From assembly GCA_000004985.1 (NCBI GenBank), contig GG738853.1: a stretch of 64,000 nucleotides of DNA. One strand, written 5' to 3'. This DNA comes from Naegleria gruberi. Lineage: Eukaryota. The position numbers were made by a program, and so were the translations under genes. How positions within the stretch are numbered: position 1 is the stretch's first letter; each line of letters opens with the position of its first letter. The notes below the pieces were generated by a model, which saw nothing but the letters and a program-made list of their open reading frames with translations, did no database searches and was not told the origin of the DNA. Shown piece by piece: positions 13,059 through 50,462 of this stretch.

Positions 13059-13487
13059 TTTTTTTGATGTTTCTAATTAATTTAAGATTTGAAAATTTGG
13101 AGATGTATTTAACATAATTTTAGTGGCACGTGTTTGAATGAAAAACACGAATATCAAGATTTTTGTTTTGTTACAGGTGTTTGTGTTGTTGTTCCTTGTT
13201 ATTCCTCACGATGAGGAGATTATTAGCCAATCTTTATGGCTTGACCTTTATCGAACTTTTTTATCAAAAACTCTCAAATTCCAATCAGACCACTCTAGAC
13301 GCTCTACTGCACTCAATCTTAACCCAAATCCTTCAAATGTTGCACAGAGTCCTTAATTGCCTAAAAGTGTGGTCTCAGGTCGTTATTGATACAAGATACT
13401 TTGATAAACTTACACCTTTTATAATCGAAACCTTTCTCTCACCGTTCAACAGACACCAAGTTTAAATTTCGAAGGTTATTATCGTAA

Positions 13488-13559
13488 GGGACCATGGTCT
13501 AGTGGTATGATTCTCGCTTTGGGTGCGAGAGGCCGTGGGTTCGATTCCCACTGGTCCCC
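13488..13559 (+). tRNA. tRNA-Pro (UGG).
   Basis: The 72-nt cloverleaf is GGGACCATGGTCTAGTGGTATGATTCTCGCTTTGGGTGCGAGAGGCCGTGGGTTCGATTCCCACTGGTCCCC. The anticodon loop is TTTGGGT and A and B boxes are present. Confidence 0.85.
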
Positions 13560-13716
13560 TTTCCTTTCATGTAACTTTGAAAATTCCAACTTTAATATGT
13601 TTTGCTTATTGGAATTTTGTATAAAATTCGTGTTATTGCCTTAGTTCAATAAATTTAGTTTAAGGTTTAAATTGAGTTTTTTGGGTACCTCCAATAAAAT
13701 TAATTGTAAAACAATC

Positions 13717-13782
13717 CTCCCATGCCGGGAATTGACCCTCCTGGGTGAAAGCCAGGTATCCTAGCCATTGGACTACACGGGA
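13717..13782 (-). pseudogene. Degenerate tRNA-Glu (UUC) copy, 66 nt, with a 6-nt deletion that removes the 5' half of the T-stem and the B box.
   Basis: It is identical to the intact tRNA-Glu at 31313..31384 except that CCGGGT is missing (GAGGGTCAATTCC versus GAGGTCCGGGTTCAATTCC). The 5' flanks are also conserved. Confidence 0.6.
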
Positions 13783-14211
13783 TCTCATTCACAATGAGAA
13801 TATTCTCATTTTATAGATAAATGCTGAAAACTCTCAGATTTTAGAAAACCTCGAGTTCCCCTCTCAAAATAAGACTCAAAAGCCTTAAAAGAATGGTTAT
13901 ACGATCTTGGTACCTGGTAATAAGTACCATCACTGATATTTATCGAAGTGATGAAAATTTGGGTGTACCCAAACGCCTTAATAAAACAAAAGACTACAGC
14001 ACCACAGGTTCCCAAGTTGTCTCCAACCTCAGTACTGATGTGGCTCGACGATGCTTAACTTCTCAAATCGGACGGGATGAGGTGCATTCATCGTGATATG
14101 GCCGTAGCCATTGATAATATCAAAATCTTAATACTGAATAAGAAACCGAATCTTGTACATTAAACATTAATAAGAATAGCGAACTGTTAATTTACGTAAG
14201 CAAAAAAGGAG

Positions 14212-14277
14212 TAGCAAATCTAGGTTTCGATCCTAGGACCTATGGGTTATGAGCCCATCGCGCTGCGCCAATTTGCT
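14212..14277 (-). pseudogene. tRNA-Met (CAU)-like sequence of 66 nt with a collapsed D-arm. It has initiator-like features (A1:U72, GATCGAAAC T-loop).
   Basis: The reverse complement is AGCAAATTGGCGCAGCGCGATGGGCTCATAACCCATAGGTCCTAGGATCGAAACCTAGATTTGCTA. The anticodon stem-loop and T-arm are intact, but only 6 nt lie between the 5' D-stem and the anticodon stem, about 7 nt too few. Confidence 0.45.
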
Positions 14278-14860
14278 TTTCATTTACCTATTAAAATTTA
14301 GTCCAACTTTCAAGCGGTTTAACATGGCCTTTGAGACTTGATCATATTTCTGATTTGTAAGTGTTTCTATATCCATAGTTATCCAATTACATTATTCAAC
14401 ATTCTATCAATCCTCTCTAATCCTAAACAATCACTTCGAATATTAGTTGACTGCCAAGCTCGAATTTGATTCTTAGTCAACAAAATCAATTTGACCGGTT
14501 TAAAAAGTATTTTCCGGTCCTCTCTTCCACCAATCACTCTCTTTACTGACTCGAAAGACGACGTACCTCACAGTTCATACAGTCAAAGACTGTAGCGGGA
14601 CAGTCGCCATATTCCTGGCAGGCTTCCCGTCTAGTAAAATTAATTGAAAAGTTTCAAATTGTTGTAAATCACAACTACACTGTAAATTTGATTCTTTATT
14701 GTTTTAAAGTTGTGCATTTGAAACTCGTTCTTTACAAAGAAGGAATTCTAATATTAAGGTAAAACTAACTTTAAATAATATTTTCAAATACTATACACTT
14801 AATTAAATTTGAAAATATTATTTATATAAATAATAATGAAAAAAAATAAACAATTGGTAT

Positions 14861-16240
14861 TTACATATTTACAGTTTGTTGATTGACTCGTTGTTGAGCT
14901 TGAATTCTTGTTGAGAAACCGTTGAGTCCTCTCTGTTCAACTCTAAATGAAGTGGCACTACAAGCTAATTTCACACTTTCAAATACTTGTTCGCTTGAAA
15001 ATGAAAGTTTGTTGGAAGTATTTGCTGTTGAATTCCTCACAAGTAACTCAGCAACAAAACAAGATAGAAAAGTATCACCAGCTCCAGTTTCGTCCAAAAC
15101 TCTAACTGGTTTGTAGGAAGAGAAATATTTAACAATTGGTGTTGAACTATTTGATCTCAACCTAGGCAAAGACAATTGAATATTTTCTCCTTCGCAAGCA
15201 CAAACACAACCAGATGATCCCATTGTAACTGTTACAATTGGAAATCCATAATTCTTTTGAATATGGTATGCACATTCTTCAGGTGTCATTTCAGAGCTAT
15301 TTGGAATACATTTCTTTGCTTCATCATGATCTAATTTAATGACTGAAATAATCTTACTCAAAGTTTCCAACACTTCCTCTAAATATTCGATAGTATTATG
15401 AGAAACTTGACCACTTTCTGTATCAATTTTTCTCAAATAACCCTGAATATCAGTACAAACTAGAAAATCTGACTGAATTTCTTTAAAAACCTGATTTGTA
15501 AAAGCATTCACAAAGTGATGATCAAACTCTGCAGCTACTGGAACAAAGAGCAATGCTCTAACTTGATGTAATTCTCTAATCATTAAATTAATTGATTCAT
15601 CTTGTTTGAAAATACTTCCTCTATCTCTACAATTCAAGCTTCTACTGTTAGAAGCATTTTCAAGTGAATCAAATGGAGGATATAATAATTCATATTGAGT
15701 TAATTTAGATGATTGATCTTCCTCAACAAGAATCATGTCAAACATTTTCATTCTTTTTAAATGTTTGGCTTCTGACAGATCAGGTTGGAATGTCTTGTGA
15801 AATTGCTTATTAATTATTGGAGATTCACATGCAACCATTGTTATTGAATCATCTTCATTAGCAGCATGTTCCAACCCATTGAAAAACTGACTCAAAATCA
15901 TCACATCATGTTTTCCAATTTTAGTCAATATTTTAGGATGAATTTTAAAATGTTGATTATTAGAATAATACATTTGATTATCAATATTCTTCATATAATG
16001 TTGAAAGGCTAAACATCCAAACATGACTGATCCTCCGAGTGATTTGTTGACTATTTTTCTATATCCTTGATAATGAATTGAATTAGCATCTTCATCGGAA
16101 TTTAATTCTTGTTCAATGTGATGATGTTGTGATGATGAAATACCATTCGGAGTATGTTGGTGATGATCTTTCTCAAAGGTAATAATTGTATCTTGAGTGA
16201 TATTACCAACGAATATTACTTGTTTTTCATTCAACATCAT
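14861..16240 (-). CDS. pfkB-family (ribokinase-like) carbohydrate or nucleoside kinase with a long N-terminal/insert region.
   Basis: The C-terminal region ...VLDETGAGDTFLSCFVAELL carries the pfkB DTxGAGD anion-hole motif, with an upstream GG dipeptide region. It is a single long ORF. Confidence 0.5.
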   Translation of the reverse strand: MMLNEKQVIFVGNITQDTIITFEKDHHQHTPNGISSSQHHHIEQELNSDEDANSIHYQGYRKIVNKSLGGSVMFGCLAFQHYMKNIDNQMYYSNNQHFKIHPKILTKIGKHDVMILSQFFNGLEHAANEDDSITMVACESPIINKQFHKTFQPDLSEAKHLKRMKMFDMILVEEDQSSKLTQYELLYPPFDSLENASNSRSLNCRDRGSIFKQDESINLMIRELHQVRALLFVPVAAEFDHHFVNAFTNQVFKEIQSDFLVCTDIQGYLRKIDTESGQVSHNTIEYLEEVLETLSKIISVIKLDHDEAKKCIPNSSEMTPEECAYHIQKNYGFPIVTVTMGSSGCVCACEGENIQLSLPRLRSNSSTPIVKYFSSYKPVRVLDETGAGDTFLSCFVAELLVRNSTANTSNKLSFSSEQVFESVKLACSATSFRVEQRGLNGFSTRIQAQQRVNQQTVNM

Positions 16241-17644: not shown

Positions 17645-19422
17645 TTATCTCATATTTCCCATACCACCCATCATTTGTTGTTGTCTTTGTTGATCGTGTT
17701 GATTTTGTTCACTTTCTGGATTCTTGACAGTTTCATCAACTGACAGAACGAGAGTAGCAGCTTCGATCGAGGAAACGAGAGCATTTCTCTTAATGAGAGA
17801 TGGTTCCCAAACAAAGTTGTTAAAATTATCAGCAACATCTTCAGTCTTCATGTCAACACCATACCAAACACCATCCTTGTCTTGATGCTTCTTTCTCAGC
17901 TTATTCAAAATATTTGTAGCATCAAAACCAGCATTTTCAGATAATTGTCTTGGAATAATTTCAAGAGCTTTAGCGAAGGCCAAAATGATTAATTGAGATT
18001 TACCCTTAATACTTCTAGCATGGCTCTTCAAGTGAGCACTGATATCCATTTCAACAGCACCACCACCAGCAACAATTGATGTATTCTTCAAAGTTCTTCT
18101 GACGACCATGATAGCATCGTGCAATGATCTTTCAGCTTCAGCAATGAATTGTTCAGCACCACCACGCAAAACAACAGTAGCAGTCTTGGAGTGAGCACAT
18201 TCAGTGAAAATGTTAAATCTTTCATTACCAACTTGTCTTTCTTCAAAGAGTCCACAAACACCCAAATCAGAATCATTAACCTTTGAGACAGTAGTCAAAA
18301 TCTTAGAACCAGTAGCCTTTGTGACACGGAGCAAATCATCTTCAGCAACACGACCAGCACAGAAAAGTCCTCTATCAGCAAAGTATTGAGTAGCAAGATC
18401 ACCAATGGCCTTCTTGGAAAGGACAATCTTAGCACCACTAGCAACAATCTTTTCCAATTTATCATAAATAATCTTCCATTCAGCATCAACAATAGATTGA
18501 TATTGTTCTGGGTTATTCAACTTGATTTCAGCGTTATCCTTTTCAGCCTTCAATTCAAGTTCAATATTGAGAGTAATAATTTTAGGAGAAATAAACTTCT
18601 TAGGTTGTTGTTCAAAACCAGCATATGAGAAACTCTTCTTGAAAGCAACACCCTTAACGAGGAAAGATTCTTGCATAGAACCACCTGGAACTTGTTTAAC
18701 ACCAATTAAATCAATATCCAAATCATCATCCAATGAAAGAACAGAATCAACAACCATTTCAGAGAAGTGATCGGATTCAATACCACCAATCAATTTAGAT
18801 GAAAGTGATGTTCTGGCAATCTTTCTAAGAAGGTCTCTAGTCTTGTTATTGTCGGTTTTATCAATTTGTACAGCAATTTCTTCCAATCTCTTCAATGCAA
18901 TTCTAAGAGCTTCTCTATAGGCTTTAATGATGAGTTGTGGATGGACACCTTCTTGTATAAATTGTTTGGCTTCCTTCAAGAATTCACCTGCCAAAATTGT
19001 TGTTGTTGTTGTACCATCACCAACTTCACTATCTTGTGATTTAGCAATATCTACTAAAAGTTTAGCTGCTGGATGGACAACATCCAACAATTTAAGAATA
19101 GTGGCACCGTCGTTTGAGATTGTAGCACGACGACCATCGTGTATAAGTTTATCCATTCCTCTAGGACCAAGAGTGGTCTTAATAACATCAACAATAGCAT
19201 AACAAGCGTCAATGTTTGATAAGAGTTGTCCAACACCTTGTGAGGTATCTGTACCATCCTTCAAGAGGATTATGCTAGGTTGCTATAATAATATTCCAAT
19301 ATTATCAATTTGTTGTTGTTGTATATCGAATGATGATGATGAATCCAACAGTTGTTTTCAAAAGAGTTCAAGAAAGTCATCAAAAGTTTTACATTAAAGT
19401 GAGTGTATAAAATCCGTAACAT
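17645..19422 (-). CDS. cct7: T-complex protein 1 subunit eta (CCT7). The main exon is 19282..17645, and a putative 30-nt first exon is 19422..19393.
   Basis: [13 protein letters not shown]...[26 protein letters not shown]...[20 protein letters not shown] and the C-terminal GGMGNMR are CCT-eta hallmarks. The acceptor TTATTATAG at 19283-19284 gives QPSIILLK. The upstream exon ATGTTACGG...TTTAAT|GTAAAA is inferred only. Confidence 0.8.
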
Positions 19423-20129
19423 TAATAGGATGAATATTTGTTAACAACTACTCATTCTTCTAACATACCATCATATGAGACATTTTGTATTCCTAATCTT
19501 TTTGTTGTTGTATCGATTGTACAAAAGGTAGTACTCTGGAGGTTAATAGCAGGGTACTTATTTTTTTCGGATTTGTTTTCCGTGTTTCTTACAAAAATGA
19601 AGGCAAGATGATGAGAGAACATCAACCTACAAAATGTATGACAAGTTAGTTGTTTGTATTATTATTATTAAATAATAGAATAGGCTTGTATTTTGTATGG
19701 TTGAGTTCAACAAGCATATAATCATGTAGGAGAAATTTTGAAGAGGTTAATGGACACTGTAGGATTAGATGATTTTGAATATTATTATGATGACAATTAT
19801 TGTATTTTAAAATCATATTGTTGTTCTTAATAATAGCTGATCTCTTATTGATAATTTTGAGAACATATAAAATTGTTTAAAAAGATGAAGGTCTTTGATC
19901 AATCATATTTAATATTTATTGCTCTATCGTAAAGGTGATGGAAATAAAATCATCTAATTGTCATCACACAATAAAATCTAATTTAAAAAAAAATTATTGT
20001 GATAAAGACAAGAAAATCATCAACAGTTTGTGAGTGTTTATTGCCGATAAAGAGTTGATCATCACATTGTCATCACATCATCATCAGAACAGAATTGAAA
20101 TTATTTATTATTATTAAAAATAGAAGATA

Positions 20130-23100
20130 ATGGATCAATATCAAATTGAATGGAGAACAGCACCCGTTCCTGTTATTGCTCTTGTAAAAAACAAGAGACT
20201 TCATGATGGATTGATTACATGTATTCAAAATAATATTTCTAGAAAGATTAAAATACTTAGCCTCGAGAATGAAAATGAAATAATCAAACCAAAATCAATT
20301 ACTTCCAAATCAAATATTAATTTGTTTGAAAACTTGAGTATGAACTCAATTTTAATATCAAGTAATGTTACTGCTAATTCCGTTATGAATAGTAGTAGTA
20401 GTAATAATAACCAAATATCGTCACCAGTAGTATTAACAAGTCCACCACCTTTACAACCATCATTATCAAGTTCTTCTATCACTTCATCTTCATCATCTAC
20501 ATCTAAAGATTTACCACCACTTCCTTCACATTTGTTAAATAATAATCCTACTAATAGATTTGAAGGAACTAAACCTGCAGGTATATTTAAACGTGGCTGG
20601 TTTAAAAAACATCAAGAATTGATACCAAGTGTTTGTGTAATTATTGTTCATTGGAAATCAGATGAACATTCTACTTGGCGTGCACAAGAAAGTGAAATTG
20701 CTAAAAAAATCTTAGCTGTAAAGGAAACAAGAACAGGAAAAAACACAAAATTTGTTGCAATAATTGTAACAAAGAAATCAACTCCTGTGAGTGAAGTTCA
20801 AGTTGATCCAAACACTTACATGTCAACTGATGATTTTATTTATAATGTCAGAAAAGCAGCTAATTTGGATAGTAAGAATATTATTTTAATGAAAGAATCT
20901 GAAATTAGTGATGATCAATCTTTTAAAACAAAGCTTACAAAACCTATAAAGGAATCTATTGTAAATTACTATAAGGAACAAATGAATATGGTTAAAAAGT
21001 TTAAGAGTGATATTAACAAAACTACTCAACCATATTATTTTGTAAGACATAGAATGAAAGTGGCATTTTACTATGACATTTTGATGAATAGTGGTTTAAC
21101 TACTCAATCGTCTATTCAAAAGATGATTAAATATCTTACACAGGCATATACAGCACTGCAAAATGTGTCAACTACAGATTTTCTTGTAGAGGAAATCAAA
21201 ACTTTGGGAGATATGCTTAATTTTAAACTTTGTTTTATCAAATTATCAGATAAGAAAATTGATATGGCTGTAAAACAATTTTTGAAACACATTTCATGGT
21301 ACAAATTAATTCATGAGGAGGATTATTCATCTAGCTCTATCGATCAATTTAAATTCCATGCAAGAGTTTATTTGCAATACAGAATGATGGGAGAAATTCT
21401 TGAAAGAATTCCACCAAATTTACTTTCACCTGATCAAAGATATCAAAATCCAGGATTTTATTATCAAGCAGCAGCTACACATGCCAAATATAGAAAAACA
21501 TATGCTTCCAATGTATGTGACCTTCACAAGGAATTGGTAGATTCCATATTTGCAGGCAATGAAGAATTGTTAACAAAAATCAAAATTGAAGATTATCACT
21601 ACTTGACTGGATATTATGGTAAAGTGATTGAAATGCCAGAACTTTCAGAAAAATTGAAGGGAAATACTAACGGTATTAATATTAGAAATATCAGAGATAT
21701 TGCTCGTGAGCTAATTCTTGCTAAACATTCAGAAACTATAATTCAAATGTTAACCAATGCTTACAATCACTTCAATGTTAAAAAAGATTCTCAACTTAAA
21801 AGAATGATGTACTATATTGCAAGCAGTATTGCTAGTGAACATTACGAGTCTGGAAACTATGAGAAGAGTAAAGTTTTCTTTGACAAGATTGCCAAACACT
21901 ACAGAAAAGAACAATGGTATGAACTGTTGACAGTAGTGTTACAGAGATCACTGGAATGTTCAAAACAATTGAAACTTTCAAAACAATTTGTTTTACACGC
22001 TCTTGAATTAATTTCAACTTGTAAGTTTAAATGATATAATACTTTTTAACACTAAAATTTCACAGTAATGACAAATCCACTTCAAGAAAAACATCAACAT
22101 TTGAATGATTTATTATTATTTATTAACACACCTGATCAAGTTATTTTACCTCCATTGTCCTCTCCTGTTGTTATAGATATGGACTCTAAAAATGTTTTAT
22201 TCCAACTTAAAACACAATTCAGTGTTCCTTTTGCATCTGTCTACCAACCAATTCAATTTTCAGTTCAAATCACTTCTTATATTCCTTCTGATTTGAGAAT
22301 TTCATCCTTGACAATTTTGTTCAGTGACAAGGAGTATAATATTCATATTCAAGATGGGCAACCAATTCCAATTCCAACATTACCTGATGCTAAAGTGAAA
22401 GAGAGTAATGGTGTTCAACAAGTTAATGAATCAGCTAGTCAATCTGGTGAACCTTTGGATTTGGTTTTGAAGGCAAACTGTCAACCATGTACTTTTAATT
22501 TCCCACTCATAATTAAGCAAAGACAAGATCTTCAATGTTTAGGAGTTTCACTTTCTCTTAAAGGACCAGTTCCAAACCAAGAAATTAGATTCCAGTGGAA
22601 ATTCTTAGATAATGAATATTTCCTAACACTTTTGAAGAGTTACGATTATAGACTTTTCTACTCTGAGGGATTGTTTGTTGAGAGACCTGTTGTGATTATT
22701 ACAGAACCAGAACCTAATCTTTCTCTTTCGTTTGCTCACTTACCTCCAGCTCTTGTAAATGAATATTATAGTATCAGTAAGTTTTCAAGAATTTGAATTA
22801 TTTTTATTAATCCTTGTAAAGAAATAACATTACATTCCAACGATGATCACGTAACTGAAGGAAGGTTGGTCATTGATAACATTCCATCTGTAGAGATTAC
22901 TCACATCTATCAAGATGAATTGGTTCCACTAACAAGCGAGGGTATCAAAGTGCCAGAAATTGTTGCTAATGGAAGTTACAGCGTTATCATTTTCTTGAAA
23001 TGTGAAAAGCCAGGAATCAACAAACTACAGTGTAGAGTCTCTTACGGAACTAAACTTTATCCACAATTAGAAAGAAGTACATCGTTTGATGTTTCTTGTC

Positions 23101-24065
23101 AATATCCATTTGATTCACATTTCCACTTTATGGCTACCAGACAAGCTGAGAGCAAAATTGTAAGAGATGAACAAAGGGATATTGTACTCAATGAGAATGA
23201 AATGATGTTCAGACTCTTACCATCTCAAAGAGTATCATTCTACCAAAAAATTATTAGTAATGTTAGTCAAAATATTTCAGTCTCAGATCCATTTGCCAAG
23301 GACAAGACACAATCAGGATTTTCTTATTTGGAAGGTTTTTCAGTTCTGCAAGCCATTGCTCTTCAAACTTCTCTCAAATGTACTACTCCTTATTCTGTAA
23401 ATTTGGAAGAAGTATCAATTGATTCCTCTGATAAGTTTATGTGTATGACTTCAACTGATTATACCTCTACTCTCTATGCAAACTCTTACAAGACCTATCT
23501 TGAAGATAAGGATGAACATAGTTCTTGTTTTGTAATTGTTCCAAGAGAGATTGGAAAGAATGTTCCTGTTGGAAATATTCGTATTGCACTTAAAAGAGCT
23601 GAACCAATTAATATTGATGAGATTGATCCAATACTTGTAGAGAAATTTAATTTAGCGAGAATTGAATATTCAACTCAACTTCCTCCTCTCAATATTATTG
23701 ATCCAGGTGTTACAGTAAGCTTTTGCTCACCTTTCGAAGCTTTTGTTGGTACTTCTATCAAATGTAGTTTAATTGTTGAGAACAATACACCACAAGTACA
23801 ACAAGTTCAATTATTCGTATCAGAAAATCCAACCTATCAACCATTCTTCTACTCTGGTACTACCAATTTGAGATTTTCTATTTTACCTTATCAAAGTAGA
23901 GAATTGGTTTATAATTTTGTTCCTATCATGACAGGATTAATTGAATTCCCAAAGTTTTCATTAGGAAATTTGAAAAAACAAGTTCACATCCTCAATGATG
24001 ATGAGAAATGGACAATCTACATTCATGAAAAGAATACATTGCCTGAAACTTTTAACATGCAATAA
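20130..24065 (+). CDS. trappc11: Trafficking protein particle complex subunit 11 (TRAPPC11 / Foie-gras-Gryzun family). Exons are 20130..22020, 22066..22776 and 22822..24065.
   Basis: GWFKKHQELIPSVCVIIVHW...GKNTKFVAIIVTKK and QNPGFYYQAAATHAKYRK match the TRAPPC11 N-terminal Foie-gras domain. Three ORF-track pieces join via a GTAAGT...CACAG intron (22021..22065) and a 45-nt GTAAGT...AAAG intron (22777..22821). The second junction is less certain. Confidence 0.7.
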
Positions 24066-25548: not shown

Positions 25549-26127
25549 ATGTCAAAACATCGATGGAAATGTGATTTACTTTTGTTATTGTTTATTATTG
25601 TAATTATTGTTATTGGATTGAGTTCAATTCCGATGTGGATTTTTTATTCGAAAGTTGATTCTCAAGCAATGAAAATTCTAAATGATGAAAATTTGTTAAT
25701 TGATGCACTAGTTGAAAATGGAACATTTAATTGTGGAATGGATGTGAATTTATTGGAATATTGCTTTCCACTTGTTAGAATGAATAATTTATTTCCTTTT
25801 CGAATTTCTAATAATTTATTAGAATCTAATTATACCATATTGAGAAGTACTACATTTTACACCTATAAAATACCTCAAAATGGACAATTAATTCAATTAT
25901 ATATTGATAGTAATTCAACGCCTGCAACTTCATTATTTATTACATTTGATAAGAGTGAAAATTTCACAAGTTTACAATTATTTCAAATTTACAATTCTCT
26001 AAAATGGGAAGGAAATGTTTTATTTTTTATTGCATGCATTGCTTGTCTGATTGCATTTGTTGGTTGTTGTGGAGGAAGTGTATGGACTATTTATTATTGT
26101 TGTAATTTGAGAGGTCAATTAAGTTAA
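25549..26127 (+). CDS. Small membrane protein with an N-terminal TM helix and a Cys-rich C-terminal TM helix.
   Basis: It is a 192-aa ORF with an A-rich ATG context and hydrophobic segments at both ends (CCGGSVWTIYYCC). Confidence 0.35.
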   Translation: MSKHRWKCDLLLLLFIIVIIVIGLSSIPMWIFYSKVDSQAMKILNDENLLIDALVENGTFNCGMDVNLLEYCFPLVRMNNLFPFRISNNLLESNYTILRSTTFYTYKIPQNGQLIQLYIDSNSTPATSLFITFDKSENFTSLQLFQIYNSLKWEGNVLFFIACIACLIAFVGCCGGSVWTIYYCCNLRGQLS

Positions 26128-26352
26128 TATTGATTTAATGAGTTTGATTATACTTTGAAAATCCAGTGGAAGTTTCCGTTCAAGAAGATCAAAATTCTTG
26201 ACAGACCTTGTAGCTATTTCAAGTCGAATGTGATCGATACAGATGATAATTATCAATTTTATTAAGGAATGGTTGACAACTCTTTAACAGAAAATAAATA
26301 ATTAGTAAGCTAGGACCTTAGTGCTTCATATTTTTTGATCATCTTTCAAGAA

Positions 26353-26423
26353 GCATTAGTAGTGTAACGGTATCATACCAGCCTTCCAAGCTGGTGACCC
26401 GGGTTCGACTCCCGGCTAATGCA
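26353..26423 (+). tRNA. tRNA-Gly (UCC).
   Basis: The sequence is GCATTAGTAGTGTAACGGTATCATACCAGCCTTCCAAGCTGGTGACCCGGGTTCGACTCCCGGCTAATGCA, 71 nt, with anticodon loop CTTCCAA. Confidence 0.85.
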
Positions 26424-27026
26424 ATTCAATTTTACAGTTGATAGAAATAAGTTTTTCTCTTTTTTCATTAATTAAAACCTTAAACAGCAGTTCAAAATGA
26501 AATTAATAAAGTGCAAATTGAATAAATTGCTATTATTTGATCCTTTGAAAATTGTAACTGCTCAGAACCACTTGTAGATTCCAAAGTTCATTAAATAATT
26601 AACAGAATTGACTTGTTGAGATTTCTTGTTCTCTAACCAACAAGAAATCTCAGCTACTTAATCTTCACAAAAGAAGAATAAGAAGAATAAGAAAATTATG
26701 AAGGAATTTGTGAGAAAAAACATGTAAACAAATGGTTTCATCTATTGACGAGGATGAGTATGAACAATATTCAATCAATTCTAAATTCTAAATATTTAAT
26801 AAATTGTTTAACGAAATGGATTGATTGTCTGTTGATGGTTTTTGGAGTGCATGAGAGGATTTACACCAGCTGAGCTCTATCTATCTCTTGGATTATTAAG
26901 GCGAGGAATCTACTAACCAATACCCTCAGAAATGGTTTCCAACAACTTGTAAAAAGCACTAATCAATCTTCAAGAAACGGTGCCATTCTTAAAGACATGT
27001 TGATATCAGCTAAACTAAAATTGAAT

Positions 27027-27097
27027 TGCATTAGCCGGGAGTCGAACCCGGGTCACCAGCTTGGAAGGCTGGTATGATACCGTTACACTACTAATGC
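27027..27097 (-). tRNA. tRNA-Gly (UCC), an inverted duplicate of 26353..26423.
   Basis: It is the exact reverse complement of the first copy, and the flanks are also mirrored. Confidence 0.85.
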
Positions 27098-27737
27098 TTC
27101 TTGTAAGATGATCAAAAAATATGAACCACCAAGTGGTAGCCATGATAATTTTCATGGAAACAATTATATTTTTTGGTAATTAATTCGATATCCAATACTT
27201 GAACATAGAAATGCGTATGGAACTAATAATTATAATTAATGTTTCAATAAAATATACTTGCTTCCGTATAACATGTCAGATTCCTTTGTTGTCACAGATC
27301 TAACATGTAAAGAAAGATACAAGCAGAGCTGAAAATTACCTTTTTTGTTGTTCTTTCAAAGCGTACAAATGAAATTGAAACTTCATGGGTGAAAAAATTT
27401 TACTGTTTTGCATTCATTCTTTGTTCTAACAGTAAAGATTCCAATAGGTAAATTAACATGTCAATATTGTTGCAATGTGTTGTTATCACCTGGCATAACA
27501 ATATCTGATATTAAATCCATTCTTATGACCATGTTCGTGATGTAAGCTTCAAATGTCATTGTACAAAATTAATCTTGTCATTCCAATTCCAACCATTGAA
27601 CCATATCATGTAAGTTTTAGTTGATTCACAACCTCCCAAAACGAAAGAAATCTCCAAATAATGTTCCATCGCCATTGACAAAAATAGAGCTATTTCGAAG
27701 AGCTTGAAAGATTACTCTCATACAGTTTCGAATAGGA

Positions 27738-28031
27738 TTGCTGCACAGCAAAACTATTGCACAACAAACTTCTTTGCAAAAAAGTATGACTAATAAGCAC
27801 ACAACCAACAACTCTTCTGATTCTCAATTATTTTCCTCATCAATCCCACCTATTCACTTCATTCCACCTACTACTACTGTCATCATTAATACAACTAATG
27901 TAATAACAAACGCAGCGAATGTGAATAATAATAATATGGTAAATGTTGATTTGCTTCTTTCTAATGAGAGTGCCACCAGAAACATTGGTAATTTAGTTCC
28001 GCATGAATTAAATAATTTTTTTCCAATGTGA
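27738..28031 (+). CDS. Hypothetical S/T/N-rich small protein of 97 aa. This is a doubtful call.
   Basis: It is an isolated ORF in an otherwise gene-poor stretch with no recognisable domain. Confidence 0.15.
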   Translation: MLHSKTIAQQTSLQKSMTNKHTTNNSSDSQLFSSSIPPIHFIPPTTTVIINTTNVITNAANVNNNNMVNVDLLLSNESATRNIGNLVPHELNNFFPM

Positions 28032-28237
28032 TGATTAATTATGATGACCAATGGAGTCCAGCCTTGCCAATCACATCTGAAAGCCTTGAAGCATACAGAC
28101 AAATGTAAATGTGTATATTATAGGATGCGTGAGAATATCGTACGCATATGTTTCTGCTTTTTTGAATACTAATAATATTCATCAAATGTTAAATTTCTTC
28201 TCGAGATGATGGAAGATAAAACTCCCTTTGTAATATT

Positions 28238-28403
28238 ACTCTCTCAACATGTACTTCTAATAAAGTAAACCAAATTACTTTAAACTCTTCAATGTAGTAG
28301 ATCCCAAACATCTTGTTGTACAACTTTTAATATTACACACTCTCTCAACATGTATTTCTAATAAAGTAAAAAACCAAATTACTTTAAACTCTTCAATGTA
28401 GTA
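28238..28403. repeat. Two copies of a direct repeat of about 63 bp (28238..28300 and 28338..28403), 37 bp apart.
   Basis: The first copy is ctctcaacatgtaCttctaataaagtaaaccaaattactttaaactcttcaatgtagtag and the second is ...catgtaTttctaataaagtaaaaaaccaaattactttaaactcttcaatgtagtag. Confidence 0.6.
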
Positions 28404-28774
28404 GAGGTAATAGTTAATTACTGGCATTCAACTTATAGTAGTAGATGAATGGTATTATGATGATACTGGAGAGGGTTAGAATCGGTTAGTAGAGAGAATT
28501 GCATTTTGAATAGATTCTATCAAAAATGATAACATAACATGTTTACATTTTGTTTGAATTTTTTTGTCGTCCCAAAACGTCCTGAAAAATATTTTAATGA
28601 AACGTTTACAATTGAATTTCTGTTCCAATTTGGACTATGTGTTTCCAAATCTATTAATAAAATCATATTGTAAAAATCTAGAATACTGTATTGTAATAGT
28701 ACTCTTAACAAATTCCTTAACTTTCTTTAAATAGAGTGAAATAAAAAGATGAATTAAGATTTTTCTAAAAAAAA

Positions 28775-29432: not shown

Positions 29433-30250
29433 GAATTATTGAAAAATATAATTGAGGATTCTAAATGAGAGCGAGCTGTTGTTTACAAGATGTGATGTTG
29501 TGAAACTAAAAGAGTAAAGTTTATTGACATTAAGCCAACATTATTATTACATACTTTGTTGATCTACCATCAGTTGCAAATTGTAAAAAATCGTAGTGGA
29601 AAATAGTCTGCAGAAACACAAAAAAAAACGAACGTACGAATATATTGATGAACATTCTTACAACACCATCAGTAACGTGGAGATAAATAATAGTTTAAAC
29701 ACCAAACATAAGAAGGGCAATAAGTAAACAACTGGTGGTCCAAAACACCCATTTTTTTATCTGACTAAAGGGGAGATGGATGCAATTAGTAAAGCTGTGG
29801 ATAGTGAAAAGCAGAAGTTGTATCAACAAACAACATTTTAAAATGTAACAACGATAGAAGGATCCACAAGTTTATCAATCATTAAAAGAAATCATCCAAA
29901 TCTCTGTCCTCCCTTTCTTGTTCTTAATCACTATTTTTTTACAAACGAGTTTAGTCTAGACTGCAAAAACCAGACTGCCAATTGGTCACAAAACATTTAA
30001 CAGTATTCTCTCATGAAATTCGAATACATGAATTAAATGAAATGGTTCAGAAAGATATGAATGAAATGATTGATAATGAGAATACTTTGGAAAGCTGAGT
30101 TGATATTTGAATAGTAAATTGAATCAGTTTTCTATCCAAATTTGGAACCTTACATCCAACTATTTTCAGCTTGTCCCAAATGAAAAACAATTCGAAATGG
30201 TTTAAATTAGCACCATCTGGTTGAACTATCCAATCCAACAAAAACAAAAA

Positions 30251-31222
30251 ATGAAAGCAAATCTAATCTTTTCAATTGCAATTCTACTCTTGCTTGCAAT
30301 CCTCTCAGTTCAAGCAAGTGATAGCTATCAAACTAAACCTCCAGTTGTCGTAGTTGACAAGTATCACAAGCCAAAGGTTTGTAAGAGAAAATGCTTAAAG
30401 CATAAGTGGATTAAGAAGTGTTTGAAACATAAACTCGTTGGTCAAAAGAAGGTCTGTGATCAATATGCAATTGTCGGTGCTGGCAAATGTCTCAAACATA
30501 AGAAATATTCCAAATGTGACAAGTACAGTAAGCCAACAAAGAAGTGTGTCTTGCATGCATACAAGATTGTTGGATGTGCCAAGAAGAAGTACTGGAAAGT
30601 TTGCGATTCTTATGGAACTAAGAAGATTTGCATCAAGAAGGGTTTCAAGAAGTTCTGTGCCAAGTACAAGATTATCAACAAGTGTTTCAAGAAGGGTTTC
30701 AAGAAGGTCTGTAAGAAATTCAAGAAGGTTCCAATCAAGAAGTGTGAAAAGAAGAAGATCTGTGACAAGTACACTGTTGATTCTTACAATAAGAAGGTTG
30801 CCAAATGTAGATATGTTAAAAAGTGCAAGATTGTCTCCTGGGCAAAGAAATGTGCCAAGTATAAGAAGGTTAAATACTGTAAGGAAAGAAAATCTTTCAA
30901 GAAGTGTTGTCTCATTAAGAAGAAATTCTTCTGTGCCAAGCATAAGACCATCAAGTTCTGTAAACACAAGAAGACTCTCTCCAAATGTGTCAAATATAAC
31001 AAGAAGAAGTATTGTGCCAAGTCAATTGTCATTCCACCAAGATGTATCAAGAAGAAGTATTATAAGAAGTGTGTGAAACGTTCAAAGGGAAAGAAGATTT
31101 GTAAGAAATTCAAATTAGTTGGTGGAAAGAAGAAGTGTTGCAAGTCAATTAAGAAGAAGATTTGTATCAAGAGAAAGACATGTAAGAAGCCAACAAAACC
31201 AATCGTCAAACCATCCTTGTAA
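30251..31222 (+). CDS. Secreted, extremely lysine- and cysteine-rich polycationic protein of about 320 aa with Lys near 35% and Cys near 13%. Function is unknown.
   Basis: The signal peptide is MKANLIFSIAILLLLAILSVQA. The mature part is built from degenerate K-x-C modules (CLKHKWIKKCLKHK..., KKVCKKFKKVPIKKCEKKKICDKY...). Codons are strongly biased to AAG/TGT, unlike the neighbouring genes, and local GC is elevated. Confidence 0.6.
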   Translation: MKANLIFSIAILLLLAILSVQASDSYQTKPPVVVVDKYHKPKVCKRKCLKHKWIKKCLKHKLVGQKKVCDQYAIVGAGKCLKHKKYSKCDKYSKPTKKCVLHAYKIVGCAKKKYWKVCDSYGTKKICIKKGFKKFCAKYKIINKCFKKGFKKVCKKFKKVPIKKCEKKKICDKYTVDSYNKKVAKCRYVKKCKIVSWAKKCAKYKKVKYCKERKSFKKCCLIKKKFFCAKHKTIKFCKHKKTLSKCVKYNKKKYCAKSIVIPPRCIKKKYYKKCVKRSKGKKICKKFKLVGGKKKCCKSIKKKICIKRKTCKKPTKPIVKPSL

Positions 31223-31312: not shown

Positions 31313-31384
31313 CTCCCATGCCGGGAATTGAACCCGGACCTCCTGGGTGAAAGCCAGGTATCCTAGCCATTGGACTACACGGGA
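31313..31384 (-). tRNA. tRNA-Glu (UUC).
   Basis: The reverse complement is TCCCGTGTAGTCCAATGGCTAGGATACCTGGCTTTCACCCAGGAGGTCCGGGTTCAATTCCCGGCATGGGAG, 72 nt, with anticodon loop CTTTCAC. It sits 90 bp downstream of the K/C-rich gene. Confidence 0.85.
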
Positions 31385-31837
31385 TCTCATTCATGATGAA
31401 AACATTCCCATTTCATAGATAAAACACACAAATTGACCATAATCTGTTGGCACTTGCAGTGAACAACCACTCCCAGTTGCCATCAAGACTGGTTGTAGTT
31501 TCCACTTGATTTTAAATCTTGTTCTCTTAGTATTTACGTTGTACATCGGAGCCTTCATACACGCTCTTTATGTTATTTTAATGAAGGATTAAATAAATTG
31601 ATTTTATTAACATCTAGACTTGTCCCTAGTTGTAAAATGATATACGAGTTAGGCATAGGGCAAGGTTGTGAACATTGTTATGTCCGTGATGATTCGGTCC
31701 TTTTTATTAGATCCGTCATCAAAATAACCATGTCAATAACCATCTTTTTGACATGTTCAAGTTGTTGGTTGGTTACAAACACACACTCATTTAGTCAGTT
31801 TTCAGCAATCAATGAAAAACTATCATCTTTAAAAAAA

Positions 31838-34800
31838 ATGAAAGATAATACTTGGTTCACAACAAGTCTTATCATTCAACTCTTTATATTGTTATTAATA
31901 TGTGTCAGTAGTAGTGATGTAATAACATCAGTCAATGGTCAAACAATTCAAGATGATATTTATATTGTTCCAATTCCAAAAGTAGTAACACCTGAATATG
32001 GATCACTTTCATTAACCCCACAAGTTTATTATTTTAATTCATCATATTCATCCAGTTCATTACAATATTTATATTCCATGTCAGATGGTTCAACATTGAA
32101 AAGTGGCATGTCATTCACATCAAATGGTTTATTTACATTTTATCCAAATCCATCACAAATTGGTCAATTTAATATATTAAGAAATGTATCATATTATAAT
32201 AGTGATAACAAGTTTACAATAATTTCACACACCATTACAATTCAAGTAATTTCATCACCTTCCAATAATGGTAATCAATTACAATTATTATTTTCAGATA
32301 ATTTCACATTTAATTTATCAAATTGGAATTTAATTGATGGAACAATGAAATTACAATCAAATCAATTAAATTTATTCCAAAATAATACAATTTTAACAAG
32401 TGTTAAATATTTTGATATTTTTAATAATAATAATAATGGTTTAACTTTTACTTTTAATTTATTAACTTCATGGACTTCTACAAGAGGTATATTACTATAT
32501 ATAGATAAATTGAATTATTATGAAATTAATTTATCAAATTCACCTTTAACTATTAAACGTTATTTAAATGGTGAATTAACAATTGTATTACAAAGTACTA
32601 AATTATTACAAGTTCATACTTCAAATTATTATTCAAGTTATAAATTATTTTTACAATTTACTAAAAATGGAATTTTAATCAATTTGGCTAAAATTGGAAC
32701 ATTATCAAGTGATTATTATTTAAATGTAATTGATAATTTTACTAATATGGAATTATTTAAAAATATTAAATTTGGATTTTTTGATAAAAGTGCATCTTCA
32801 CCAACTGTGTCCACTTTTAAAGTTTTACAATTTCAAGTTTTTAATGGAAAATTAATTCACACCAGACAAGCACAAACTTATCATGTTGATGCAACTAATG
32901 GAAATGATTTAAATGATGGGTTAACAAAATCAACTGCTTTAAAAACATTAAATACAGCTCAATATCAATTATTACCTGATGATACTTTACTAGTTTATGA
33001 TTCTATTTATAGAGAAAGTTTCCAAATTAATAGAGAAGCATCAATTTATCATCCAATTACAATTAAAGCAGTTAATCAACCAACTACTACAACTACCACA
33101 TTTACAACAACACCATATACTCATACATCAATTATTGATGGTTCACTTGTATTAGATAATTCTAAATTAACTAAAATTAGTAATAGTAACATTTATCAAA
33201 CCTATATTAAATTTACACCAGATGTAGTTTATTTAAATGGTGTGAAAATGAGTTTAGCAATGAAACCACTTCCAGCTGATTTACAAGATGAATATTTTAC
33301 AGATAATTATATTCATCCATTAAATAATTCAAAATTTCATCTGATAATTTATTAATTTATTTAAAATTAGATGAAATGTTTAAATATGATTCATTTGGTA
33401 ATAGAGTTTCAGATAATTATTGGAATGGTGCTGATTTATATCATTATTATTATGGAGCTAATATTGTTTTCACACGTAGAATTTTATCTTACAATGCATC
33501 AACCAATACTATTGGAATGGAATATAGAGATTCTATATGGGGACAATTAATTATTTCAACAAGTGATTTCTATGCTATTGGTAATCATGTTGGTTGTTTT
33601 TCACAAGCTAATCAATATGTTTCCTCTAATAATCAAATATCAGTTTCATTGAGTAGTGATCCATATTATATTCAATCTAATTCTCTATTATTAGAAGTAT
33701 CATCTCTCTCGAATGGTATTAAATTTACAAATGGAATGGAAGGTATTAGAGTTCAAGGATTAATGATTAGAAAATTCACAAGTGATGGAATTCAATGTTC
33801 TTCTCAATGTAATAATATTGTTCAACTAAATATAATGGTGGATCAGGTGTCAGTTTCACATCCTCTCAAAACATACTCATTGATGGAGGTGAACATTCAC
33901 AAAATTTCAATAATGGAATTAATTTTGGAGGTGGAATGAAAGATTCAACTATTGAAAATTCCTACGTTCATGAAAATGTCAATAATGGTATTTGGGTAGG
34001 TAATGGTGGTTCCAATCTATTCTATTGTTGGAATATTCTATTAAAATCTAATAAGGTTGGACCACATTTTAGTCAACGTCTCCATCCAGATAATATTCAA
34101 TTAGCTAGTTCACATAATGTAACATTAGATTCTAATATTCTCATTCAATCAGGTGGTGATCAAAATATGTGGATGGAACAAAATGGTCTCGTCACATTTA
34201 AAAGAAATATTTTCATTAATGGACCACTTGGTTTAAATCATGCATTGAATTTAGTATTAATTAATAATATATTTTATCAATCATGGATGAGATATTCATT
34301 TAAATTTGAAAATTATGTTACTTATAGTTCACTTGTTGGTTTACAAAGTGTTTTAGATTGGAATCAAATGTTTAATAGTTTAAATAGTAGTACTACTACC
34401 ATTAATGGAAATGATTTACCTAATATACTTGTTTGGAAAGATTTAAATTTACAAATATCAAATAGAATTAAATCATATTCATCTTTTAATTTATTAACTA
34501 ATTCAGATAAAAATGATTTAATTAATCATTTAAATAATATTATTAATAATACTTTATTTATGAAAGAACATAAAGATTTAGTATTACCTTTATTAGGAAA
34601 ATCAAATGTTGCATATCCATATTGGACTGCAATTACTAAACGTGGATTATTAGATAATTCAACAGGTCAATTCAATTTAATGACAAGTGACATTTCAATC
34701 ATTGAAGAAGTTAGAGGTTTAACACGTGCTATTTTAGATGAATTAGTTTTTGATGGAATTTTATCAAAATCTTTAATGACATTTTATCCAAGAATTGTTT

Positions 34801-40471: not shown

Positions 40472-42607
40472 ATGTCATCATCATCTTCGTCAAGTAGAGA
40501 AGGGAAAATTAAGAAAAGCCTTCCACCTAAGATACACCAATCTCCAAATAGCAGCAGCAGTAGCAGTAGCAGCTATGGTAGTGATGATAGTTTTACTACA
40601 AATTCATCACTAGTAACTTCTAGTTTGGCTGCAGATTCGGAAGAAATTAATTATGCTGCTAATACATCAACAAGTCATTTGACAACAACACACCGTTCCG
40701 GAAGTGGATCTGATTCTGATTCTGAATTTCTACCATCTTCAAAACCACAAATTCCACCTTCAAATAAGAATATTTTCAATCCACCTTCATCAATATCATC
40801 TGAAAAACCACCTTTACATTATGTTCATAAGCATTACCATCACTATACTGATACAAGCCAAAATTCAAAATTATCTGGAGCTTCACAATCCTTGAGATCA
40901 TCTGTTTCCACCTCAACTAGTTCTTCCTCAAAGATTCATCAAACAAATATTGATAGTATATCCTCATCATCTCTTTCTTCTTCTTCAAGGAGAATGGGAC
41001 AAGGAGTAGCGCCACCATCTTCAACTTTATCAAGTACAATTCTTACAAATACCACGGCTGCCTCGCCACCAATGCAACACGACAGTAAAGCTATTTTGTC
41101 TGCTCTTCAGTCACTGCAAGAAAAGATCAAAACATTGCAAACAAGAGTTGATGAATTGGAAAGAGAAAAAGTTGAACAAAGGCATAGATATGAACAGGAA
41201 CTGTTTTCACTCAAAATGAAGTTAGAAAGTGAAAGAGATTCCTACAAGGAACAATTGGATATCACTCGTACTGAATGTAAAAGATATAGTGATAAATTGA
41301 CTGAAACTGAAAAGGAGCTAACTCAATGTAAAGATTCTAGAAGAGAAATCAGTACCAATAATAGTAAATCTCAACAGAGAACTCTTGAGCTTGAAAGAAA
41401 ATCCAATACACTTGAAACAGAATTGCTAGATCTTAAAGAAAATCACTCTAGGTTGAATAATCTTTATGAACAATCTTTGAATAAGATTGAAGAACTCCAA
41501 TCTAATTTGGTTAAATATCATAGAAGAAAGGAGAGATTAGAAGTTGAAAAGAAAGAGCTTGATACTGCTCTTAAGGAAATGATTGACCTTCACCAACAAT
41601 TTGTTAATCAAACACTAGGAGAACAAACTACTCAAAACCATATGTCTTCATCTCAACACATTCATCATCAACAACAACAATATGTTTCAAATAATCATCA
41701 CAATCATGTCCATAATTCAAACACTATCAAATCATCTCCTATGGTTCAACAACCAGCTATAATACCACAACAAACAATAAGCCCACCACCTAGATCATCC
41801 TCCCCAACAATGGATAAGAAAAAGAAGAAGTTAGCAAGCTTGGCACGTCCTAAATCTGCTGGTGTTCTCCAACCAACAATAAGCTCTTCAAGAAAGAAAA
41901 GAAGAGAACAAACTTCTAAGAGAATGACAGCTGTTCACTACTCAACCAATCAAATTCCTGTGAGTAGTTCCGCCCAACAACAACTACAACAACCATATGT
42001 TAATCAATCTGCTACAAATATAATTTCTAAGCTTTCCTTAAATAAGAACCTTCATGAGAGACTTAAAAAGTCCAATAACAATACTGCACCACCTTTCTTG
42101 CCTAATAGCTTTAACAGCAATTCTAGGACCTTCCACGCTGCAGGACAAGCTCAGAATCTTCTAAGCACAACAGTTGGAATTGGTAAAAAAGAATCCACAA
42201 ATTATTACGGAGCCAACGAACACGCTCAGGACAGAGAGCATATTCAAGTTCTGAGAGAGGTTGATGCATTCAACAGTGGTGAAGAAATAAGGGATTGTAT
42301 CGCTCAACTCGAAGAAGAATATTTACAATCTCAGGAACAGTACAAGCTCTACTTGAGTAAGCTGTCTGAACCAGAAGTGAATATTGATTTTGTCAAGGAA
42401 CAACTCAAATATTTGACAGAGTCAATGGATAGAAAGAATAAGCAACTGAATACTTTGAAGACTTATCATTTGAGTGTTTGCGAAAGAATTCGAGATGCAA
42501 CATCACCACCAAAAATTAGGGGTAGTGAAAAGAGAGTTCAAGCTCTTCGATTGTTTAATGACTTGAGAAAATTACAACAGCAAGGAACTGTTGCAAATCA
42601 CTGCTAG
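40472..42607 (+). CDS. Ser-rich / coiled-coil protein of unknown function.
   Basis: It is a 711-aa single ORF with a poly-Ser N-terminus, a central heptad-repeat region (LQTRVDELEREKVEQRHRYEQE...) and an H/Q/N-rich low-complexity region. Confidence 0.45.
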   Translation: MSSSSSSSREGKIKKSLPPKIHQSPNSSSSSSSSYGSDDSFTTNSSLVTSSLAADSEEINYAANTSTSHLTTTHRSGSGSDSDSEFLPSSKPQIPPSNKNIFNPPSSISSEKPPLHYVHKHYHHYTDTSQNSKLSGASQSLRSSVSTSTSSSSKIHQTNIDSISSSSLSSSSRRMGQGVAPPSSTLSSTILTNTTAASPPMQHDSKAILSALQSLQEKIKTLQTRVDELEREKVEQRHRYEQELFSLKMKLESERDSYKEQLDITRTECKRYSDKLTETEKELTQCKDSRREISTNNSKSQQRTLELERKSNTLETELLDLKENHSRLNNLYEQSLNKIEELQSNLVKYHRRKERLEVEKKELDTALKEMIDLHQQFVNQTLGEQTTQNHMSSSQHIHHQQQQYVSNNHHNHVHNSNTIKSSPMVQQPAIIPQQTISPPPRSSSPTMDKKKKKLASLARPKSAGVLQPTISSSRKKRREQTSKRMTAVHYSTNQIPVSSSAQQQLQQPYVNQSATNIISKLSLNKNLHERLKKSNNNTAPPFLPNSFNSNSRTFHAAGQAQNLLSTTVGIGKKESTNYYGANEHAQDREHIQVLREVDAFNSGEEIRDCIAQLEEEYLQSQEQYKLYLSKLSEPEVNIDFVKEQLKYLTESMDRKNKQLNTLKTYHLSVCERIRDATSPPKIRGSEKRVQALRLFNDLRKLQQQGTVANHC

Positions 42608-42717: not shown

Positions 42718-42760
42718 AAGTATAGATGTAAAAACGTTCAGCAGCTGCTAACGTTTTTAC
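42718..42760. repeat. Near-perfect 43-bp palindrome (15-bp arms around an 11-nt internally palindromic loop), 110 bp downstream of the coiled-coil gene stop.
   Basis: The sequence is agatgtaaaaacgtt-cagcagctgcta-acgtttttacatct. Confidence 0.6.
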
Positions 42761-43110
42761 ATCTGTGTTGTATCTCCCATCCTTCTCTCTCACTATTATC
42801 TAATATCTGAAAAGGACATCAAAAGAGTCATTTTTGGCTCCTAGCCTTAGTTTTATTTAAAAAAATAGCTCTACTACAGCATCAGCAGGTTTTTTTGAGC
42901 ACCAGCTACAACAAACTAGTACAAAACCTTCCTAACTTTCTCTAACTCTAAATTGTACAAAGTATGTAATATTATTAATTTAATAGTAGTGATTGTAATG
43001 ATTATCTTTATATTCCGTTATTTAAATAATTTTGCACTTCATCTTTTTCATCATCATTAATACAACAACAATAATAATAACAATAACAACAATAATAACA
43101 AAACAATAGA

Positions 43111-49319: not shown

Positions 49320-50462
49320 TTATTTATTTAAATTAATATATTTAACATTTAATTCAATACCATTATTACTTTGATTTCTAAAAATGGAATTAAAATTATC
49401 ATTTTTTAAATTATTTGAATAATCAAATGCAATTCCCATACTTTCAGTACTAAAAGTATAACCAAATTCTAATTGATCATAATCAGTAACTTTACATGAT
49501 AAACATCCAATTTTTCTTTCATTTGTAAAATTAATTAAATTACCATAAATAGAAAATAAAGCTTGTTCCATTGGAATTTCAAATATTTTATCAACTAGAT
49601 AATTTGACATTTGATTTAACATGATATCTTCACCAATTCCACTAAAATTACTTGCAATTTGTATAAAATTATCATTATCACTATCTTGTACATATTTAGT
49701 ATCTGAATAACATCCACTTCCATATATAGAAGCTTCACCAATTCTACCTGAATATTTTAATGATATTCCACCACTACTAACACCTGATGATAATATTCCA
49801 TTATAATATATTATACATCCAACTGTATCATATNNNNNNNNNNNNNNNNNNNNNNNNNNNNNNNNNNNNNNNNNNNNNNNNNNATTATTTAAATTATTTA
49901 TATTATTATTACCATTTATATTATTATTATTAAAATTATAAATAGATGAAAAACATAAACATGCATCACATTCAACTAAACCATTTCTATTTAAATTACT
50001 ACCATATCCAGCATTTGTAAATGGTGAATTTTCTAAAATAGAAATAGCATATGAACATGCATTTAAACATTTTTTTATTTTTTCATTTTCATCATTTTTA
50101 TTTATAAATTTACTATTATTTAAATTATTTAAATTATTAAAATATTGATTAATAGTTTGTTGTATAGATTGTTTCATTAAATTTCTATATAAATTATTAT
50201 TATTAATAGAATGATATCCTGCTCCACAATGAACTGCAATAAAATATACATCATCTTCATCTTCATCATCTTTTAAATCATTATTTAAATCATTATTTAA
50301 ATTATTATATTCTATTATTTCATTATTATTATTATTATCTTGTTGTTGTTGAATAGATAAAGATGATGATGATGAATTATTCCGATCAACATGTTGATGA
50401 TGATTAACTTGTTCACTCATTTTTTTAAAGTTTATAATAGAAAAAAACAAATTGTAACACAC
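49320..50462 (-). CDS. Threonine aspartase 1 (Taspase-1, asparaginase-2 / Ntn-hydrolase family), interrupted by a 50-N scaffold gap.
   Basis: FIAVHCGAGYHS, LENSPFTNAGYGSNLNRNGLVECDA and DTVGCIIY...SSGGISLKYSGRIGEASIYGSGCY match the Taspase-1 core, including the Thr nucleophile of DTVG. Confidence 0.65.
   Translation of the reverse strand: MCYNLFFSIINFKKMSEQVNHHQHVDRNNSSSSSLSIQQQQDNNNNNEIIEYNNLNNDLNNDLKDDEDEDDVYFIAVHCGAGYHSINNNNLYRNLMKQSIQQTINQYFNNLNNLNNSKFINKNDENEKIKKCLNACSYAISILENSPFTNAGYGSNLNRNGLVECDACLCFSSIYNFNNNNINGNNNINNLNNXXXXXXXXXXXXXXXXXYDTVGCIIYYNGILSSGVSSGGISLKYSGRIGEASIYGSGCYSDTKYVQDSDNDNFIQIASNFSGIGEDIMLNQMSNYLVDKIFEIPMEQALFSIYGNLINFTNERKIGCLSCKVTDYDQLEFGYTFSTESMGIAFDYSNNLKNDNFNSIFRNQSNNGIELNVKYINLNK
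49834..49883. other. Assembly gap of 50 N.
   Basis: A run of n characters sits inside the Taspase-1 coding region. Confidence 0.99.

Follow-up and report, generated by a model that had tools for sequence, protein, structure and literature searches.

The closest described counterparts of the locus reported here are the homogeneous anti-parallel tDNA pairs, in which fewer than 1000 nt separate two oppositely oriented genes for one amino acid, as tallied in the genomic survey of Bermudez-Santana et al. (2010; PMC2888827). In Naegleria gruberi, that survey counted 924 tDNAs and 77 adjacent tDNA pairs within 1 kb, compared with 39.35 expected at random; the same-amino-acid pairs comprised 8 in the '++', 4 in the '+-', and 0 in the '-+' arrangement, for which 1.02, 0.51, and 0.51, respectively, were expected (PMC2888827, Additional file 2). 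The survey provides counts only and describes neither shared flanks from −36 to +11 nor sharp unit boundaries, and we found nothing beyond it in the literature on Naegleria tRNA gene organization. Pairs and triplets of tRNA genes with identical anticodons are described for Dictyostelium discoideum (Eichinger et al. 2005, as cited in PMC8163159); these likewise place identical tRNA genes near each other in a compact, A+T-rich protist genome, but N. gruberi belongs to another supergroup (Heterolobosea, Discoba). Similarities in architecture also exist to tRNA-derived SINEs and to MITE/foldback elements, which are short non-coding units featuring tRNA-like Pol III promoters and inverted termini. 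Lastly, inverted repeats that destabilize DNA, such as closely spaced inverted Alu pairs in yeast, have very short spacers; the pair described below has near-perfect arms of more than 100 nt as they do, but its arms are separated by 581 nt of unique sequence.

The window, i.e., the whole 64,000-nucleotide stretch of DNA that was analyzed, contains a CCT/TCP-1 eta ORF (17645-19264, − strand) that matches a Naegleria gruberi protein at 100% identity along its entire length and is 90% identical to that of N. lovaniensis and 83% identical to that of Willaertia magna; when an independent assembly of the pair was sought, this gene was found only on metagenome contigs of 2-3.5 kb. Because of this identity, the window is N. 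gruberi nuclear DNA and not that of a social amoeba. The original prediction had assumed a dictyostelid host, which is incorrect, and the dictyostelid precedent of paired tRNA genes therefore applies by analogy only.

ARAGORN identified five tRNA genes in the window, two of which are 71-nt genes for tRNA-Gly with the anticodon tcc (UCC). As had been predicted from the sequence, these two genes are identical and face each other across roughly 600 bp, the measured distance from gene to gene being 603 nt. Both copies were independently matched to the Rfam tRNA family RF00005 with a cloverleaf fold and a score well above its gathering score of 29, and by score, anticodon, internal promoter boxes, and oligo-T tract both belong to the nuclear tRNA class, isoacceptor Gly-UCC. 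A convergent pair reads '+ then −' from either strand, so that this pair, with its two genes 603 nt apart, fits the '+-' class of the survey (PMC2888827). The convergent same-amino-acid arrangement is thus one already tallied for N. gruberi, where it is uncommon, yet about eight times as frequent as expected by chance. Coordinates of these genes and of the other features discussed below are collected in Table 1.

Table 1 Features of the tRNA-Gly pair and of other Pol III genes and hairpins in the window.
Feature	Position	Strand	Remarks
tRNA-Pro(UGG)	13488-13559	+	
Decayed tRNA-Glu copy	13717-13782	-	Rfam 38.9 bits; not called by ARAGORN; 6-nt T-arm deletion
5S rRNA gene	13991-14109	-	105 bits
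tRNA-Met(CAU)	14211-14277	-	Initiator-like: A1, three G-C pairs in anticodon stem, ATCGAAA T-loop
Perfect hairpin	14775-14821		
Left inverted-repeat arm	26317-26434	+	36-nt 5' flank, 71-nt gene, 11-nt trailer
Shared -28..-8 stretch, left	26325-26345	+	TTCATATTTTTTGATCATCTT; identical in both copies; T/A-rich, TATA-like core
tRNA-Gly(UCC), left copy	26353-26423	+	ARAGORN (anticodon tcc); Rfam RF00005, 69.3 bits
T4 run, left gene	26430-26433	+	Putative Pol III terminator; 6 nt past gene
Unique spacer	26435-27015	.	581 nt; 29.9% GC
Back-up T5 and T6 runs, left gene	26452-26456 and 26460-26465	+	
Spacer hairpin (perfect, 26617-26652)	26617-26630 / 26639-26652	.	14-bp stem, 8-nt loop; extendable to 26615-26654
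Next T-run (T5), right gene	26951-26955	-	
Right inverted-repeat arm	27016-27133	-	Counterpart of left arm
T4 run, right gene	27017-27020	-	AAAA on + strand; 6 nt past gene
tRNA-Gly(UCC), right copy	27027-27097	-	ARAGORN (anticodon tcc); Rfam RF00005, 69.3 bits
Shared -28..-8 stretch, right	27105-27125	-	Matches left copy
tRNA-Glu(UUC)	31313-31384	-	ARAGORN
Perfect hairpin	42724-42764		

The similarity between the two copies extends beyond the genes on either side. A repeat search identified two inverted arms of 118 nt, 97.5% complementary and 581 nt apart (self-blastn E = 1.3e-52), which agrees with the 120-bp arms originally proposed; the whole arm-spacer-arm structure measures 817 nt. When the arms were compared position by position, three mismatches were found, at −33, −29, and −7 relative to the tRNA 5' end (26320/27130, 26324/27126, and 26346/27104). 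All three lie in the flanks, which match at 44 of 47 positions (3/47 differences), compared with 0/71 differences in the genes, although this contrast is only marginal (p = 0.06 for chance placing all three in the 47 flank positions). On the upstream side, the shared flank of 36 nt is very close to the predicted length of about 35 bp. On the downstream side, pairwise alignment yielded only 11 shared nucleotides, ATTCAATTTTA, rather than the predicted 20 or so, with the similarity stopping just past the T4 run. No further copy of the arms or of the spacer was detected by self-blastn in the 64-kb window.

Each arm contains what appears to be a complete Pol III unit. The A-box-like sequence TAGTGTAACGG (positions 8-18) and the B-box GGTTCGACTCC are intact in each tRNA-Gly gene, and both copies are apparently intact as judged from their sequences. 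The −28 to −8 stretch would be a candidate for an upstream Pol III promoter element of the TFIIIB type. A search for oligo-T terminators between the genes, as had been suggested, found a T4 run 6 nt after each gene and additional T-runs further into the spacer; with its own T4 run and back-up T-runs, transcription by Pol III from either gene should stop long before the opposite arm. Neither an external B box nor the remnant of a tRNA-targeting retroelement was seen adjoining the Gly genes.

The remaining Pol III genes of the window, other than tRNA-Glu, form a compact cluster at 13077-14863, the second longest ORF-free stretch; the longest, 26125-28768 (2,644 nt), holds the Gly pair. To the right of the pair, the latter stretch also contains two direct copies of a sequence of about 75-80 nt (28228-28301 and 28325-28405; 89% identical, 97 nt start-to-start), a repeat not reported by Tandem Repeats Finder at score 40. 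Apart from a T/A-rich patch, the regions upstream of the Gly, Glu, Pro, Met, and 5S genes bear no relation to one another; common descent of a small copied unit is therefore a better explanation for the identity of flanks within a family than selection on a shared motif.

The outer ends of the arms are sharp. When we aligned the 40, 80, or 150 nt just outside the two arms by Smith-Waterman, the scores were no better than those of shuffled sequences, with 169 to 1308 of 2000 shuffles reaching the observed score. A duplication that has diverged by about 6% would stay recognizable beyond the arms, and none was seen, from which it follows that the copied unit had discrete ends at approximately −36 and +11. 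A decayed larger palindrome or segmental duplication was rejected on the same grounds, i.e., that the similarity ends abruptly at the arm ends in both self-blastn and Smith-Waterman comparisons. Together, the arms and their sharp ends make the footprint of an inverted duplication with preserved flanks, one of the possibilities raised in the original prediction, the best reading of the locus. We consider it probable that the pair is an inverted duplicate of a discrete tRNA-Gly(UCC) Pol III unit, neither copy of which appears damaged: a complete unit would have been duplicated in inverted orientation, 581 nt apart, and the second copy would have arisen when a discrete stretch of about 118 bp was duplicated at the DNA level, and not by a large segmental duplication that later decayed. 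The absence of differences in the gene, compared with three in the flanks, would fit purifying selection, possibly aided by gene conversion between the arms.

The 118-nt terminal inverted repeats enclosing a non-coding core are also what would be expected if the 817-nt structure were a foldback or MITE-like element with tRNA-bearing termini, or if the two copies were tRNA-derived SINEs. We regard this as very improbable. No target-site duplication borders the structure (26307-26316 and 27134-27143 were compared by inspection), and neither its spacer nor its arms have another copy in the window, the 64-kb extent within which copy number was judged. The arms also share 36 nt of untranscribed DNA upstream of the gene, which a retrocopy of a Pol III transcript would not be expected to include, they lack an A-rich tail, and each contains a full canonical tRNA gene. 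By these features, the pair belongs to neither the MITE/foldback nor the SINE/retrocopy class.

A second tRNA family in the window is bounded in a similar way. The intact tRNA-Glu gene and the decayed tRNA-Glu copy lie 17.6 kb apart in direct orientation; they match at 33 of 40 positions from −40 to −1 and at only 12 of 60 beyond −40, and they also share a trailer of about 25 nt with two T-runs. The Gly pair and the Glu pair thus have a copy unit with the same sharp bounds. As the source of these copies, retroposition of Pol III transcripts is a poor fit, given the 36-40 nt of similarity upstream of the mature 5' end and the lack of a tail and of a target-site duplication.

That tRNA-Glu units of equal extent are found 17.6 kb apart in direct orientation indicates that such units disperse, and raises the alternative that the second Gly copy was inserted independently, as a dispersed tRNA-Gly cassette landing by chance or by preference near an existing tRNA gene. 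The sharp unit ends and the large number of tDNAs in N. gruberi (PMC2888827) are compatible with this alternative, which we nevertheless consider unlikely. The 4 convergent same-amino-acid pairs within 1 kb far exceed the genome-wide expectation of about half a pair, and this excess of close convergent pairs indicates that proximity favors local copying or targeting; in addition, neither arm is flanked by a target-site duplication.

The spacer between the arms is probably best described as ordinary intergenic DNA. It has no ORF of at least 50 codons wholly inside it, shares no repeat with the rest of the window, and gave no match in Rfam besides the tRNAs. A hidden gene, non-coding RNA, or transposon remnant was sought both in the spacer and in the adjacent region 27134-28768, and no Rfam match beyond chance was obtained; mir-7 scored E = 0.56, and the SpF41 matches merely overlap the tRNAs. 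The spacer had been described as compositionally unlike typical AT-rich intergenic DNA, but its GC content of 29.9% is ordinary compared with the window mean of 29.2% (28.7% in ORF-free and 29.4% in ORF-like DNA, the latter defined as lying inside stop-to-stop ORFs of at least 120 codons and the former as lying outside these). The expectation of very A+T-rich intergenic DNA arose because a dictyostelid host was assumed, and the assignment to Naegleria removes the basis of the claim.

The spacer does contain a separate perfect hairpin, as predicted, although not the 13-bp one proposed at 26626..26660: its stem is 14 bp and lies slightly further to the left (Table 1). Its predicted DNA fold has an energy of −12.6 kcal/mol (z = −4.4). 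Only three perfect hairpins in the window combine a stem of 14 bp or more with a 3-20-nt loop, compared with 0.13 expected from shuffles, and their sequences are unrelated. The hairpin at 14775-14821 lies 40 nt past a PfkB-like ORF (14861-16240, − strand), and that at 42724-42764 lies 117 nt past another ORF (40472-42607, + strand). Such perfect hairpins may mark transcript ends.

To place the pair in its genomic context, the window was compared with the CCT-eta/TRAPPC11 loci of three relatives: N. lovaniensis (L013, PYSW02000022.1), Willaertia magna (L014), and a Logan contig (L001, SRR29240419). For the TRAPPC11-like ORF, one homolog was identified, with 69% identity. By tblastx, the gene order in N. 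lovaniensis and the Logan contig is TRAPPC11(−), CCT(+), ELP6, PFK(+), DIRP(+), whereas that of the window is CCT(−), TRAPPC11(+), an 11.6-kb segment (24.1-35.6 kb), PFK(+), DIRP(+). From these differences in order, the CCT-TRAPPC11 block (17645-24065) is inverted relative to PFK-DIRP. ELP6, which occupies the junction in the relatives' loci, was not detected in the window. Besides the Gly pair and the tRNA-Glu gene, the 11.6-kb segment contains a DUF4116 gene, a 192-aa ORF, and other ORFs; it has no tblastx counterpart in the loci of N. lovaniensis, W. magna, or the Logan contig. No tRNA gene is present in the matching loci of the three relatives (20-22 kb each), and no orthologous site for the Gly pair was found in them, hence there is no intergenic counterpart to compare. 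From this comparison, the Gly pair appears to be lineage-specific. The absence of the segment agrees with published remarks that synteny between N. gruberi and N. fowleri is lower than expected (PMC6125883). Within the same segment, a 585-aa ORF (31598-33355) adjacent to the tRNA-Glu gene had no homolog in a search of 5.8 billion proteins and no Pfam match, and a 333-aa, Lys/Cys-rich ORF (30221-31222) with reiterated KKC/KHK motifs and a signal-like N-terminus likewise had no Pfam match.

The location of the pair in this segment, next to the two-gene block whose orientation is reversed compared with N. lovaniensis, together with its predicted fold, might suggest that the inverted repeat itself is functional or destabilizing, whether as a fragile cruciform or hairpin site, a hotspot for flipping of the spacer, or a source of hairpin RNA or small RNAs. 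Folded as single-stranded DNA, the region 26300-27150 brings the arms together into a near-perfect stem (−194 kcal/mol, z = −19), a value that describes a potential only. A long unique spacer, here of 581 nt, makes cruciform extrusion from duplex DNA very unfavorable. The pair thus shares with cruciform-prone repeats the long, near-perfect arms (118 nt, 97.5%) but not the short or absent spacer, and the large cruciform originally envisaged is a thermodynamic possibility for single-stranded DNA that is unlikely to form here. Small RNAs seeded by anti-parallel tRNA pairs have been the subject of speculation (PMC2888827), which we count in favor of a function; against it, given the T4 and back-up T-runs, Pol III would not be expected to read through both arms. 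We found no evidence for the recombination hotspot that had also been suggested, as 2.2 kb and two ORFs separate the pair from the edge of the inverted block. Traces of a larger, decayed palindrome were likewise absent. On balance, a functional or destabilizing role of the repeat is improbable. If the pair is instead an inverted duplicate of a Pol III unit, the most likely effect of having both copies would simply be a higher gene dosage of one glycine isoacceptor.

The window has a single assembly gap, 50 N at 49834-49883, within the most A+T-rich part of the sequence (48-52 kb, 17-20% GC), and the presence of a gap could be taken to favor a chimeric or fold-back join as the origin of the arrangement. 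Fold-back assembly artifacts are typically perfect palindromes without unique spacers, which counts against this reading; the arms differ at three positions and enclose 581 nt of unique sequence, the structure is small, and the gap lies 22.7 kb away. An artifact is accordingly a far-fetched explanation of the pair.

A metagenome scan with the full 71-mer of the tRNA-Gly gene gave no match, and its 31-nt core was found at 11 metagenome loci. These were considered as possible relatives of the Gly genes and rejected, since they read as archaeal-type or virus-like tRNAs; four of them are canonical 71-nt genes, which match at only 55 of 71 positions and have unrelated flanks. On three A+T-rich metagenome contigs (L003, L006, and L011), a tRNA-Gly(UCC)-like gene that ARAGORN did not call has an insert of about 16 nt in its T-loop (TTTTAAAAGAAATT...), which we read as an archaeal-type non-canonical intron unrelated to the window.

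On its own, the Gly pair matters little, being one more local tRNA-gene duplication in an organism with an unusually large tDNA complement; the correction of the taxon from a dictyostelid to Naegleria gruberi is a useful outcome in itself. Of wider relevance are the two tRNA families with the same sharp flank limits. Tentatively, and with a good deal of doubt, the roughly 900 tRNA genes of N. gruberi could have increased in number as discrete cassettes of DNA, about 120-140 bp long and each spanning the footprint of the Pol III complex from approximately −36/−40 to just past the oligo-T terminator, by DNA-templated copying. The copying would then involve neither retroposition nor segmental duplication but a process such as template switching or the repair of breaks at tRNA genes, and the inverted Gly pair and the pair of Glu gene and pseudogene might be two snapshots of this process. 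If such flank limits hold genome-wide, they would inform how tRNA gene families have expanded in this lineage.
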